From the IMG/VR virus record IMGVR_UViG_2537561620_000017, positions 1-25,587 of that record: DNA of 25,587 bases; one strand, 5' to 3'. Positions 3,521-21,798 of this stretch are shown here, in pieces (position 1 is the first letter of the stretch; every line of letters begins with the position of its first letter). The notes under the pieces are model-generated. The model saw nothing but the letters and a program-made list of their open reading frames with translations. It was not told where the DNA came from and did not search any database. Position numbers and translations under genes: made by a program. This DNA comes from a virus (taxonomy: Duplodnaviria; Heunggongvirae; Uroviricota; Caudoviricetes).

Positions 3521-3980
3521 TTATGCCTCCGATTCCCGGATGTCACCCAAATCAACGCTACAATGCCAACCAGTGCAACGAGCGCAAAACTATCAAGCAT
3601 CTCCAACCTCTTTAACGGTAACTGTCTGTGCCTCCAGTTCTGCTATGCGCTTTTCTGAGGCTTCAAGTAACGCCTGCTTATCGCGTAGCGCTTCTTCCAG
3701 TTCAGCAACATGGCATTCACTATCAATAAGGTTGTTCTCTGCTGCTTCCAGCTCAACACGCAACTTCCCTACCGTTAGCGCAATTTCCTCGTTCTCCTGA
3801 TCGCGGCTTTTGATGTATTGCAGGTTTCTTTCCCGTTCATCCAGTAGTGCCAGCGCAACATTTGGATTAAAAGCAGCAATAAATTCAGCGTTTGCATAAG
3901 CCTGAACATGAAGTGGCACACTGAATTTGGCCACCTGAACAGAGGTGATATGCTCACCTCAGAACAACACAGGTGCTCCA

Positions 3981-4283
3981 ATGAAAAAAAGAAATTTTAG
4001 CGCAGAGTTTAAACGCGAATCCGCTCAACTGGTTGTTGACCAGAAATACACGGTGGCAGATGCCGCCAAAGCTATGGATGTTGGCCTTTCCACAATGACA
4101 AGATGGGTCAAACAACTGCGTGATGAGCGTCAGGGCAAAACACCAAAAGTCTCCCCCATTACCCCGGAACAAATTGAAATCCGTGAGCTCAGGAAAAAGC
4201 TACAACGCATTGAAATGGAGAATGAAATATTAAAAAAGGCTACCGCGCTCTTGATGTCAGACTCCCTGAACAGTTCTCGATAA
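3981..4283 (+). CDS. IS911 transposase OrfA
   Basis: [51 protein letters not shown]... HTH and leucine zipper typical of IS3-family OrfA; A-AAA-AAG slippery heptamer near the 3' end (about 4234-4240). Confidence 0.9.
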
Positions 4284-4309
4284 TCGGGAAACTCAGAGCG
4301 CATTATCCT

Positions 4310-5149
4310 GTGGTCACACTCTGCCATGTGTTCGGGGTTCATCGCAGCAGCTACAGATACTGGAAAAACCGTCCTGAAAAACCAGACGGCAGACGGGCTG
4401 TATTACGCAGTCAGGTACTTGAGCTACATGGCATCAGCCACGGTTCGGCCGGAGCAAGAAGCATCGCCACAATGGCAACCCGGAGAGGCTACCAGATGGG
4501 ACGCTGGCTTGCTGGCAGGCCCATGAAAGAGCTGGGGCTGGTCAGCTGTCAGCAGCCGACTCACCGGTATAAACGTGGTGGTCATGAACATGTTGCTATC
4601 CCTAACTACCTTGAAAGGCAGTTCGCCGTGACCGAGCCAAATCAGGTGTGGTGCGGTGATGTGACCTATATCTGGACGGGTAAGCGCTGGGCGTACCTCG
4701 CCGTTGTTCTCGACCTGTTCGCAAGAAAACCAGTGGGCTGGGCCATGTCGTTCTCGCCGGACAGCAGGCTCACCATGAAAGCGCTGGAAATGGCATGGGA
4801 AACCCGTGGTAAGCCCGGCGGGGTGATGTTCCACAGCGATCAGGGCAGTCATTATACGAGCAGGCAGTTCCGGCAGTTATTGTGGCGATACCAGATCAGA
4901 CAGAGTATGAGCCGGCGCGGAAACTGCTGGGATAACAGCCCAATGGAACGCTTCTTCAGGAGTCTGAAGAACGAATGGATGCCGGTGGTGGGTTACGTAA
5001 GCTTCAGCGAGGCAGCTCACGCCATAACGGACTATATCGTTGGATATTACAGCGCACTAAGACCGCACGAATATAACGGTGGGTTACCCCCAAACGAATC
5101 GGAAAATCGATACTGGAAAAACTCTAACTCGGTGGCCAGCTTTTGTTGA
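4310..5149 (+). CDS. IS911 transposase OrfB (made as OrfAB by -1 frameshift)
   Basis: 279-aa ORF with the integrase-like catalytic core of IS3-family transposases; -1 frame relative to orfA. Confidence 0.9.
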
Positions 5150-5506
5150 CCACTTCAACATCTGTTTCAACCAGGCAGTTAACATGACATTCCGCAATCA
5201 CACCACCGGGTTCTCCTTTCCATTTTTGACAAACAAAAACTCCTGTTAAATTGCCGTGCCGATTAACAGATGTATGCCCTACGATGTAGCTTCCTTTAGT
5301 TGCTTTTTCTGCCTTGGCACGCAGTGCCTGATAGTCAATCTTGCTCACTGGTTGCCTCCTTTGCGCCACATCGCATTCAGATATTTGTTGTCATTAACAG
5401 AACCGAAACTCTTTCTCTTAAGCAATTCCTCTCTCGATGGCATTGGCTTTACGCGCTGGCGAATAATCATTTCTGCCGGAAGAATGCCGGGATTGTGGAT
5501 TTGCCC

Positions 5507-6412
5507 CTATATTTCCAGACATCTGTTATCACTTAACCCATTACAAGCCCGCTGCCGCAGATATTCCCGTGGCGAGCGATAACCCAGCGCACTATGCGGA
5601 TGCCATTCGTTATAATGCTCGAACGCCTCTGCAAGGTTCTTTGCTGCCGTTAACCCGTCTGGTTTGGGCATGATACTGATGTAGTCACGCTTTATCGTTT
5701 TCACGAAGCTCTCTGCTATTCCGTTACTCTCCGGACTCCGCACCGCCGTGTTCTTCGGTTCAAGTCCCAACATCCGGGCGAACTGGCGTGTTTCATTAGC
5801 CCGGTAGCATGAACCATTATCCGTCAGCCACTCCACTGGAGACGACGGAAGATCGTTGCCGAAGCGGCGTTCCACCGCTCCCAGCATGACGTCCTGTACT
5901 GTTTCACTGTTGAAGCCGCCGGTAGTCACCGCCCAGTGCAGTGCCTCACGATCACAGCAGTCCAGCGCGAACGTGACACGCAGTCTCTCTCCGTTATCAC
6001 AGCAGAACTCGAACCCGTCAGAGCACCATCGCTGATTGCTTTCTTTCACGGCCACTCTGCCTGTATGTGCCCGTTTCGATGGCGGTACAGCAGGTTTTCG
6101 CTCAAGCAACAGCGCATTCTGGCGCATGATCCGGTAAACACGTTTGGCATTGATCGCAGGCATACCATCAAGTTCTGCCTGTCTGCGAAGCAGCGCCCAT
6201 ACCCGACGATAACCATACGTGGGCAGCTCTCCGATAACATGGTGTATACGGAGAAGCACATCCGTATCATCAGTGTGACGACTGCGGCGGCCATCCATCC
6301 AGTCATCGGTTCGTCTGAGAATGACGTGCAACTGCGCACGCGACACCCGGAGACAACGGCTGACTAAGCTTACTCCCCATCCCCGGGCAATAAGGGCGCG
6401 TGCGCTATCCAC
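5507..6412 (-). CDS. insD: IS2 transposase OrfB
   Basis: 301-aa ORF matching IS2 InsD, with the integrase-like catalytic core. Confidence 0.9.
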
Positions 6413-20009: not shown

Positions 20010-20051
20010 TGAACCGCCCCGGGTTTCCTGGAGAGTGTTTTATCTGTGAAC

Positions 20052-20942
20052 TCAGGCTGCCAGATCATCGTTTCCGATGGAAGCATAATAAGCTTTTTCT
20101 GCTTCTGCCGGAGGGATGTGGCCCAGCCTTTCCAGCAATCGTCGATTGTTATACCAGTCCACCCACGTTAGTGTGGCCAGTTCCACTTCTGCACGGTTTT
20201 TCCAGCTCTTACGGTGTATTACCTCCGCTTTGTAAAGACCATTGATGCTCTCCGCCATCGCGTTGTCATACGAGTCGCCTGTACTTCCTGTTGATGCCAG
20301 TAATCCGGCTTCCTTAAGCCGCTGTGTGTAGGCCAGCGATACATACTGAGAACCTTTATCACTGTGATGGACCGTGCCGGACGGTCGACGGCCCCATAAC
20401 GCCTGCTCCAGTGCATCCAGCACGAATGTCGTTTCCATGGACGATGAGACCCGCCACCCCACGATGTATCCGGCAAACACATCAATGATGAACACCACAT
20501 AGACGAAGCCCCTCCATGTGCTGACGTAAGTAAAATCAGCCACCCACAGCTGGTCAGGTCGTTCTGCCACGAACTGACGGTTTACGCGGTCGCCTGCGGC
20601 AACGGCTTTCCGGCTGATGGTCGTACGGACCTTTTTACCCCGGAGAACACCGGCAAGTCCCATAACCGCCATGAGACGTGCCACAGTGCATCTGGCCACT
20701 CTGATACCTTCCCGTAACAACTGACGCCAGACTTTACGCACACCGTATACCTTGTGATTTTCATCGTATACGCGCTGTATCTCTTTCTTCAGCCAGTCAT
20801 CGCGCTGCGCACGGGCACTGCGTTTATCCGGATGATGTCGCTGTTGCTGACAGTGGTAATACGTTGACGGGGCAATATGCAGTTCGCTGCATAGCGGTCC
20901 GACCCCGTACTGCTCACGCAGCTTATCCAGCAGTGGCATCAT
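20052..20942 (-). CDS. IS629 transposase OrfB
   Basis: 296-aa ORF with an IS3-family catalytic core, in the -1 frame relative to orfA. Confidence 0.85.
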
Positions 20943-21265
20943 TTTTTCCAGAGGTGGTCGAACTCCGCCTTCGCAAAATAAGCGGAAGCCTGCCGAAGGA
21001 TATCGTTACTGCGGCGCAGTTCACGATTTTCACGCTCCAGCTCTTTCAGACGCTGACGTTCAGCGGTGGTGAGCCCTCCATCACCGCCCCCGGTATCCCG
21101 CTCATGCTGGCGAACCCAGACACGCAGAGTCTCCGGCGTACAGCCAATCTTTGGAGCAATGGAACAAATTGTCGCCCATTGTGAGTCATATTCGCCCTGA
21201 CTTTCCAGAACCATACGGACTGCCCGTTGACGGACTTCGGGGGAAAAACGAGTATTTTTAGTCAT
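20939..21265 (-). CDS. IS629 transposase OrfA
   Basis: [61 protein letters not shown]... matches IS629-type OrfA. Confidence 0.85.
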
Positions 21266-21319
21266 CCTGTTTACCTCTTTCTCAGGAAGTTTAGTCTCCA
21301 GGATTCCCGGGGCGGTTCA

Positions 21320-21798
21320 CTTTGTTTTCTGTCTGAGGGTTCATGCTGTACCCAGTTGTAATAACCGCTCCTGGATACACCAAATACCTGACACATCGCT
21401 TCAATGGGAAATTGTTGTCGCCATTGTTCGATTAACGCGTATTTTTCAGCGACTCCTGTGCAAAATACGCTGTTGCTTTTTTTAATATATCTCGCTCAAG
21501 GCGAGCTTCATTTAACGCCTTACGCAGTTGCAGAATTTCAGATTCCAGTTCAGCCACCGTGCGGGAACCAGGAGTACCGAGCCCTTTTCTGGCGGCGGTA
21601 ACCCATTGTCCTAAAGTGCCTTCAGGAAGGGATAATCGGGAAGCGCCTTCACTGATCGAAAGTTGATTTTCAAGAACCGTTCTGACAGCTTCGGCTTTGA
21701 ACTCTTTAGAGTAACGTTGGGTTTTTCTGCTCATTATTAGCTCCTTCTGATGCCATTCTATTTCAGGAAGGAGTGTCCGTTAAACTCAGGCTACCTCA
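21320..21798 (-). mobile_element. IS600 remnant (left end, orfA and first ~35 codons of orfB), truncated by IS629
   Basis: Terminal sequence TGAGGTAGCCTGAGTTTAACGGACACTCC (read on the minus strand) ending at 21798; orfA intact; orfB N-terminus (QWRQQFPIEAMCQVFGVSRSGYYNWVQHEPSDRKQ) runs into the IS629 end. Confidence 0.75.
21432..21734 (-). CDS. IS600 transposase OrfA
   Basis: [51 protein letters not shown]... matches IS600 OrfA as recalled. Confidence 0.8.

Follow-up and report, generated by a model that had tools for sequence, protein, structure and literature searches.

What does a stretch of phage DNA represent when its modules stand in an unusual order and orientation with insertion sequences (ISs) between them: one scrambled prophage, a naturally mosaic phage, or remnants of more than one prophage brought together by rearrangement? 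The question is raised by IMG/VR virus record IMGVR_UViG_2537561620_000017 (Duplodnaviria; Heunggongvirae; Uroviricota; Caudoviricetes), of which positions 1 to 25,587 were analysed; this whole stretch of 25,587 nucleotides is referred to as the window. An initial annotation had proposed that its ISs mark rearrangement junctions and that IS-mediated deletion and inversion have scrambled the modules of a prophage in a Shigella-like genome. Comparison with relatives bears out the deletions and inversions, but the window does not hold one prophage. It is probably (about 0.8) a composite of two lambdoid prophage remnants in Shigella flexneri, cut, flipped, and joined at ISs. The feature map (Table 1) combines six-frame open reading frames (ORFs), NCBIfam and Pfam scans, an inverted-repeat search, and a direct reading of every junction. 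P1 denotes the prophage at att-lambda beside ybhC, and P2 the prophage at ybhA. L-numbers denote loci of relatives: L002 is E. coli FDAARGOS_944 (CP065613.1), L006 is S. flexneri SFBU1023, L007 is ECMA0423, L009 is CP054892.1, L013 is JAUTDC010000001.1, L043 and L052 are both CP026810.1, and L056 is CP026799.1.

Many S. flexneri assemblies hold this locus, according to a look-up of window-encoded proteins, and the suggestion of a Shigella-like genome was correct. The S. flexneri contig AKMX01000023.1 is 100% identical to the window (20,879 of 20,879 bases). Contigs could have been mis-joined at the repeated ISs, and this identical public contig is itself from a draft assembly, though it spans six IS copies. 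On the other hand, CP032513.1 (S. flexneri SFL1520), a hybrid assembly of MinION and MiSeq reads (PMC6424224), is colinear over the whole window at 99.98% identity (at about 681,970-707,558, reverse strand), and all window junctions are present in the closed genomes CP066809.1, LR861788.1, and CP045522.1. Since the same order recurs in the SFL1520 hybrid genome and in other independent closed genomes, an assembly artefact is extremely improbable. In the assembly collection, 1,148 blocks list the DnaC-like protein of the replication arm, and each place that was read had the window arrangement. These blocks are mostly contigs of 5-10 kb, a size to be expected where drafts break at the flanking ISs. 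IS DNA totals 7,891 bp, or 31% of the window; the IS share of the whole SFL1520 chromosome is ~7% (PMC6424224).

The two integrase genes have different chromosomal neighbours. int1 adjoins ybhC in many E. coli genomes, and in the Shigella loci L009 and L055 too; a look-up of its protein returned E. coli contexts only, the protein being very widespread. int2 adjoins ybhA and, in the Shigella loci, is followed by ybhA, modCBA, acrZ, modEF, and galET. The E. coli order is int1, ybhC, ybhJ, ybhI, ybhH, ybhD, pgl, ybhA, modC. In contrast, the window type is preceded on its left by ybhC and ybhJ, and L009 reads, within one 20-kb locus, ybhC(-), int1(-) ... int2(+), modC(-). Set against the E. coli order, the L009 and window-type order indicates that ybhC is inverted relative to mod-gal. 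The Shigella-like locus L037 is un-inverted, with bioA and ybhB, then ipaH ... int1, then ybhC ... pgl, then late genes of the second prophage. Each prophage has a tyrosine integrase at a defined site and an early-left arm transcribed towards that integrase. The gene orders thus identify two lambdoid prophage remnants at neighbouring sites (att-lambda/ybhC and ybhA), and a single scrambled prophage was rejected on account of the two integrases with their different neighbours. Neither ORF nor profile scans of the window found a complete lambdoid module set: there is no repressor/cro, Q, holin, endolysin, whole terL, or head or tail gene.

Not every IS in the window marks a rearrangement. IS911, described from the outset as a clean insertion with a 3-bp duplication, has two overlapping transposase ORFs (orfA and orfB), both matching transpos_IS3. 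Its ends are TGAAGTGG...CCACTTCA, with terminal inverted repeats that begin TGAAGTGG. It is flanked by ACA (3906-3908) and ACA (5158-5160), a 3-bp target duplication. The Ea22 gene that it splits is uninterrupted in L003 and L005, and the empty site in L005 reads ...GCCTGAACA-TCTGTTTC..., with one ACA only. Because ACA stands on both sides and once in the empty site of relatives, IS911 is a plain insertion. For the IS66-family element, IS629, and IS1, the initial annotation had reported that matching duplications are lacking. All of its boundary calls were exact, the flanks are unlike, and no duplications emerged after the boundaries were re-checked; no intact relative with this gene order was found either. 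The flanking genes are also as it had named them, the "unassigned DNA" on the left of the IS66-family element being the 3′ remnant of Rz and a DedA-family gene.

The IS66-family element is a copy of ISSfl3, whose ends (GTAAGCG...CGCTTAC) are those of the family. Its flanks, GCTGAGGA and TTCCCAGA, do not contain the 8-bp duplication. Another ISSfl3 copy, in L039, has a perfect 8-bp repeat (GGGAAGTC), so the boundary call is right and the missing duplication is real. In CP026810.1 (L052, positions 8326 and 4711) the same two flanks keep their order and orientation at a distance of 3,614 bp; in L001 they are colinear and ~3.6 kb apart, and L039 has the same gene order with dnaB intact. The unbroken arm of CP026810.1 reads dnaC, dnaB (463 amino acids), a hypothetical gene, NinH, Q, tRNAs, holin, lysozyme, Rz, DedA, terS, and terL. 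This comparison indicates that ISSfl3 marks a 3,614-bp deletion that took the 3′ end of dnaB, ninH, Q, the tRNAs, holin, lysozyme, and the 5′ end of Rz. A seeming ISSfl3-dnaB junction in E. coli (hit H5) consists of two unrelated pieces joined by the search tool, and an apparent 6-bp shared ISSfl3 flank in L056 is an alignment over-extension with mismatches. IS1, which the initial annotation cites although it lies beyond the range given there (3909-21798), likewise has differing flanks (AAGCGTGCA and GTCTTGCCG), with no 8-9 bp duplication despite intact inverted repeats. It takes the place of L002 25263-26534, where the flanks are 1,272 bp apart (E. coli FDAARGOS_944), which indicates a 1,272-bp deletion of the 3′ end of the ATPase gene, DUF1187, xis, and the first 544 bp of int2. 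Since both are complete ISs without a duplication, and their flanks are colinear and in the same orientation in uninterrupted relatives, ISSfl3 and IS1 are deletion scars, the first within an arm of one prophage and the second within the early arm of the other.

The terminase genes do lie inverted, as had been noticed: early genes on one side and replication genes on the other enclose the small-terminase gene and the 5′ part of terL, both of which are on the minus strand. The junctions that had been flagged hold, but the one that makes this inverted segment is at IS2, which had been listed without being flagged. IS2 is flanked in the window by GATTG and ATTGC and thus has no 5-bp duplication. 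In L006, L007, L052, and L056 the same IS2 copy interrupts terL as a simple insertion between two ATTGC repeats, with the 3′ part of terL, the portal gene, and later genes beyond it. The right flank in the window is this original ATTGC followed by the 5′ part of terL. The left flank belongs to P1: L005 runs through it undisturbed (...GGGATTG-TATGCAAGTCC...), whereas the window turns into IS2 there, and the surrounding DUF2737 region matches L005 22827-23164 at 97% identity. DUF2737 shares its strand with the 5′ part of terL in the window, whereas the two are encoded on opposite strands in CP026810.1 and in any standard lambdoid prophage. With no duplication, and with flanks whose relative orientation is opposite to that of the ancestral arrangement, IS2 is identified as an inversion junction at which one terL flank was exchanged for the P1 early gene DUF2737. 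The 4-bp ATTG match at both IS2 flanks was considered as a degenerate duplication and rejected, as ATTGC is the true duplication in the sister strains and GATTG is native to P1.

A further junction joins a truncated recE to a truncated primase gene through an IS3-family element, which we take to be IS629 from its ends and length (the scans give the family only), and an IS600 stump that this element cuts. The primase gene is truncated at its 5′ end at IS629. The IS629 flanks are TTC and CTT, with no 3-4 bp duplication and with intact inverted repeats; an apparent 5-bp shared IS600 flank in L043 proved to be an alignment over-extension with mismatches. On the right of the junction, the P2 early-left arm is 99.6% identical to L002 22819-25262. 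In L002, L062, and L063 this recE-gam-ATPase-int2 arm natively continues into a Rac-like centre (YdaT, ydaV, DUF977, QueH, hokD), pieces of which survive at ~99.5% identity in the Shigella loci L007, L042, and L056. P2 resembles the Rac prophage of E. coli K-12 in having a recE-type arm that matches the RecE model, and in the ydaV, YdaT, and YdaE genes of the centre that goes with it in relatives. Because the replication arm hangs on int1 elsewhere and the recE arm natively has a Rac-like centre, IS629/IS600′ appears to join DNA of the two prophages.

One module boundary is free of ISs. At 16026-16036 the match switches from L001-type DNA (Rha, O, dnaC, dnaB) to L005-type DNA (primase, NinB, NinE, toxin-antitoxin). 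No IS is hidden here; the boundary is the edge of a shared toxin-antitoxin cassette, which in L005 follows NinE and in L008 separates the immunity region from Rha-dnaC-dnaB. The cassette is therefore a probable crossover region, being found in both parental phage contexts, and the module crossover probably took place in it or beside it. The resulting tandem of two replication modules (primase-helicase, then O/DnaC/DnaB) is intact in L042, L045, and L048. It was found in none of the phage records searched, and the junction of modules A and B occurs at high identity in no E. coli genome of the collection. Lambdoid phages are mosaics, and this boundary is indeed an IS-free mosaic joint, as would be expected if all the ISs were simple insertions into one naturally mosaic phage genome that was never rearranged. 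However, five junctions in the window (IS2, ISSfl3, IS629, the IS600 stump, and IS1) have no target duplication, seven genes are cut exactly at IS ends, the two integrases face outward, and no phage record has both replication modules together. Relatives moreover supply the lost DNA, and the empty-site and intact-arm comparisons refute simple insertion, leaving it next to no credibility.

The ownership of the arm at 6827-20009 bears on the history of the composite. In CP026810.1 this arm is part of one colinear prophage that runs ybhC, int1′, IS600, toprim ... dnaB ... Q, lysis genes, DedA, terS, and terL::IS2. It can be followed there through to terL with the same IS2 insertion, and its orientation relative to int1 is opposite to that in the window. 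CP026810.1, LR213452.1, and L048 all carry the arm on int1 in normal orientation, at 99.6-99.8% identity to the window. From these relatives we infer that the stretch from the primase gene to terL is the right arm of the att-lambda prophage itself. Adjacencies are broken in four places (recE, DUF2737, the primase gene, and terL), and two inversions, each between two inverted copies of one IS, would account for all four. The first would have involved IS2 in DUF2737 and IS2 in terL, and the second IS629 (or IS600) in recE and a copy in the primase gene. Either recombination between IS copies in direct orientation or adjacent deletion promoted by an IS would have produced the ISSfl3 and IS1 deletions, and point frameshifts would have been added after the rearrangements. 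This two-inversion history, which we infer from the broken adjacencies, predicts a first reciprocal junction of the form ...CAGTTTGATGATTGC/TGGATTTGCCCC..IS2..GGGGGCCAGTCTA/(GATTG)TATGCAAGTCCTCTCAT..., and the strings GGGGGCCAGTCTA-NNNNN-TATGCAAGTCCTCTCATG (NNNNN = GATTG) and CAGTTTGATGATTGCTGGATTTGCCCC. The second would consist of the 5′ part of recE, the remainder of IS600, IS629, and the first ~559 bp of the primase gene.

Several points weigh against this account. The reciprocal junctions of both proposed inversions were not seen within ~10 kb of window-encoded proteins. A scan of viral contigs for the predicted junction gave 0 matches, in a collection that has just one 6.7-kb piece of the locus, and all strains returned by a scan of genome contigs had IS2 in its ancestral state. 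No exact representative was found in a protein search with the 255-amino-acid 3′ fragment of terL. The int1′-IS600-primase link of CP026810.1 is itself an IS600 junction without a duplication, so this genome is no proof that the arm originally belonged to the att-lambda prophage. The late block (DedA, terS, terL) shares 99.8% identity with that of the ybhA prophage of FDAARGOS_944 (L002 8001-10346), and in L037 late genes of this same type adjoin pgl, which fits an origin of the block from the ybhA prophage. Finally, homologous recombination between ISs and transposase-driven deletion or inversion are indistinguishable at any one junction from sequence alone.

Some of these points would suit a shorter history of one inversion plus internal deletions, in which 6827-25587 is a single colinear ybhA prophage, its immunity region was deleted at IS629/IS600′, and only IS2 marks an inversion. 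The series int2, ATPase, gam, recE, then primase, nin, dnaC-dnaB, then Rz, DedA, terS, terL follows the order and orientation that are canonical for lambdoid phages, and both of its ends match the ybhA prophage L002 at 99.5-99.8%. The DnaC-like and NinB proteins are listed once per complete genome of the lineage, and the duplication-less link in CP026810.1 and the late genes beside pgl in L037 point the same way. This was our first model, and it was downgraded by the arm on int1 in CP026810.1 and by the Rac-like centre, which the ybhA prophage has in L002, L062, and L063 and of which remnants persist in Shigella loci. An arm with IS2 in terL that lies on int1, as in CP026810.1, LR213452.1, and L048, is unreachable from this model by one event. 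The single-inversion history is thus considered unlikely, and the composite of two prophages rearranged by two inversions is preferred.

A separate matter is whether transposases themselves made the junctions, a single IS copy promoting deletion or inversion of the DNA next to it, in place of RecA recombination between two pre-existing copies. IS1 is a classic promoter of adjacent deletions, and both deletion scars keep a complete IS and one original flank, as either route predicts. On the other hand, IS2, IS629, IS600, and IS911 belong to the IS3 family, whose copy-out, paste-in transposition does not by itself invert flanking DNA. Both an intermediate and a product of recombination are also seen among sister strains. 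Many of them carry a second IS629, which lies within ISSfl3 at 11677-11680 and points the same way as the copy at 20010, and in CP054892.1 exactly 11681-20009 is deleted with a single IS629 left. Given the two-copy strains and this product, deletion between two IS629 copies is a process that can be seen in sister strains. Direct action of transposases is therefore doubtful as the general source of the junctions, though it keeps a real minority chance, and recombination between IS copies is favoured.

Table 1. Features of the window, with the profile or comparison on which each assignment rests (PGAP, Prokaryotic Genome Annotation Pipeline).
Feature	Position	Strand	Basis
attL region and int1 (135-1205)	1-1205	-	Pfam lambda-type Arm-binding domain and Phage_integrase
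P1 early-left genes: xis 1183-1401, AntA antirepressor 1486-2109, ORF6N 2431-3138, DUF551 3086-3520	1183-3520	-	Pfam
ead/Ea22 gene, split by IS911 into 3593-3908 and 5161-5349	3593-5349	-	Pfam Ead_Ea22
IS911 (IS3 family)	3909-5157	+	NCBIfam transpos_IS3; matching elements in relatives named "IS911 family" by PGAP
DUF2737 gene of P1, first 17 bp missing; left flank of IS2	5346-5495	-	Pfam DUF2737 recorded for L024, L028
IS2, 1,331 bp	5496-6826	-	NCBIfam IS2 TnpA and TnpB, both over cut-offs
Late/lysis block: 5′ terL 6827-7602, small-terminase-position gene 7445-8209 (split), Rz remnant	6827-9172	-	Pfam Terminase_3
DedA-family gene (within late/lysis block)	8404-8916	+	Pfam VTT domain
Rz, 3′ remnant only	9005-9172	-	late/lysis block
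ISSfl3 (IS66 family), 2,754 bp, tnpA/tnpB/tnpC	9173-11926	+	NCBIfam IS66 TnpA, TnpB, TnpC; PGAP name ISSfl3
Module A: dnaB (11927-13172, last 146 bp missing), dnaC-like gene 13169-14047, O-like gene, 77-amino-acid gene, Rha/Ash 15182-16198	11927-16035	-	NCBIfam DnaB, DnaC
RelE/Gp49-HTH toxin-antitoxin cassette	16036-16730	+	comparison with L005, L008
Module B: NinE, NinB 16905-17315, 92-amino-acid gene, toprim primase-helicase	16732-20009	-	Pfam NinB, Toprim_2
NinE, NinB, 92-amino-acid gene	16732-17590	-	module B
Toprim primase-helicase, ~559 bp missing at 5′ end, frameshift at 18776	17665-20009	-	Pfam Toprim_2
IS629-type element (IS3 family), 1,310 bp	20010-21319	-	NCBIfam transpos_IS3; 25-bp terminal inverted repeats (pair I3)
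IS600 stump, first 479 bp including orfA	21320-21798	-	99.6-100% identity to PGAP-annotated IS600 in L004, L005
P2 early-left arm: 5′-truncated recE, gam 23112-23408, Sak4-like AAA_24 ATPase without last 270 bp	21799-24241	+	NCBIfam exodeoxyribonuclease VIII; Pfam AAA_24
IS1, 768 bp	24242-25009	-	Pfam DDE_Tnp_IS1; terminal inverted repeats found (pair I13)
int2, 3′ part (last 192 codons), to ybhA edge	25010-25587	+	99.5% identity to L002 26535-27112

Positions 1-1765 are 99.6% identical to L003, where the match begins directly after ybhC, and the P1 early-left gene order also occurs in L033, L036, and L055. The late/lysis block is 99.6% identical to CP026810.1 (L052), in which it is continuous with the replication arm. 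The gene at the small-terminase position is a single 254-amino-acid ORF in L002 and L024 and two ORFs in the window. The gene for the DedA/VTT membrane protein, which lies on the opposite strand between lysis and terminase genes and is kept in L002, looks like moron cargo. At the chromosomal edges, an ipaH effector gene lies beside tail-fibre remnants at the ybhB end of the att-lambda remnant in the related Shigella-like loci L035, L037, and L038 (about 3188-4951), which places the att-lambda site among the ipaH islands. The ybhA gene, immediately to the right of the window, is called at 188 amino acids in the Shigella loci (L010 12663-13229), compared with 272 in E. coli; the Shigella gene beside the prophage end may be a pseudogene.

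In the replication arm, module A is 97.7% identical to L001 and 99.7% identical to L048, and module B is 98.9% identical to L004. Full-length copies of the toprim gene, which is 2,907 bp in L004 (9935-12841), are found there and in L048 (6745-9651), and the protein has 968 amino acids in relatives. The toprim protein also matches Hom_end_hint and LAGLIDADG_3 and, weakly, models of intein-containing DnaB and RecA; judging from these domains, an intein with a homing endonuclease is probably present in it. The O-like gene contains, at 14468-14512, four repeat units of 12 bp (TAYTCTCTGNWG-like) that resemble origin iterons such as those of the lambda O gene. Relative to the intact arm of L048, the window has 1-bp deletions at 14639, 16268, and 18776, which shift the reading frames of the O-like, RelE-type toxin, and primase genes, respectively. 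In some sister strains the primase ORF is unbroken (760 amino acids). The three deletions represent either recent pseudogenisation or draft sequencing errors.

Rearrangement at this locus extends beyond the window arrangement. Additional IS911-flanked deletions occur in CP054892.1. In ECMA0423 the Q-tRNA-holin segment is inverted between IS911 copies, and in JAUTDC010000001.1 the right flank of IS1 differs. At least three structural states are seen (window type, CP026810.1 type, and CP026799.1 type). Tentatively, and against the odds as we see them, the interval between ybhA and att-lambda might be a recurrent rearrangement hotspot in Shigella, where the two prophages repeatedly swap or flip arms through their IS cargo. 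If so, lineage-specific structural variants could serve as phylogenetic markers, and such variants might be kept for fixing useful cargo in place, such as the far-end ipaH gene, the toxin-antitoxin cassette, or the gene of the DedA family.

Homologous stretches of resident lambdoid prophages act as portable recombination sites in E. coli O157:H7, where arms are exchanged or inverted. Unlike those exchanges, the repeats used here are IS copies inside prophages, except at the toxin-antitoxin module boundary. ISs are known to lie at inversion and deletion breakpoints in Shigella, inverted copies giving rise to inversions and direct copies to deletions (Seferbekova et al., 2021, PMC8072062). In the same study 103 of 114 reconstructed inversions fell on Shigella branches (PMC8072062), and phage regions of S. 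flexneri are mostly cryptic after deletions (PMC6424224). The IS-breakpoint process is the same here, whereas those studies work on synteny blocks of at least 5 kb or on prophage lists, and no description of the base-level junctions of this locus was found in the text consulted (PMC8072062, PMC6424224). Like the cryptic or "grounded" prophages of PMC6379469, P1 and P2 have become immobile because int/xis, immunity, lysis, and packaging genes have been lost. In contrast to those prophages and to Rac, two decayed prophages at adjacent sites are fused here, with a chromosomal segment flipped between them.

The locus is an instance of the ordinary, already known IS-driven decay of Shigella genomes and presents no new biology. 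It illustrates, base by base, how prophages are taken apart and segments of the chromosome flipped as ISs expand in Shigella, and it is a reminder that the lack of a target duplication reliably signals rearrangement. It is also a caution for prophage callers, which would report one odd prophage where two remnants lie, and its junctions are usable as markers for typing S. flexneri lineages.

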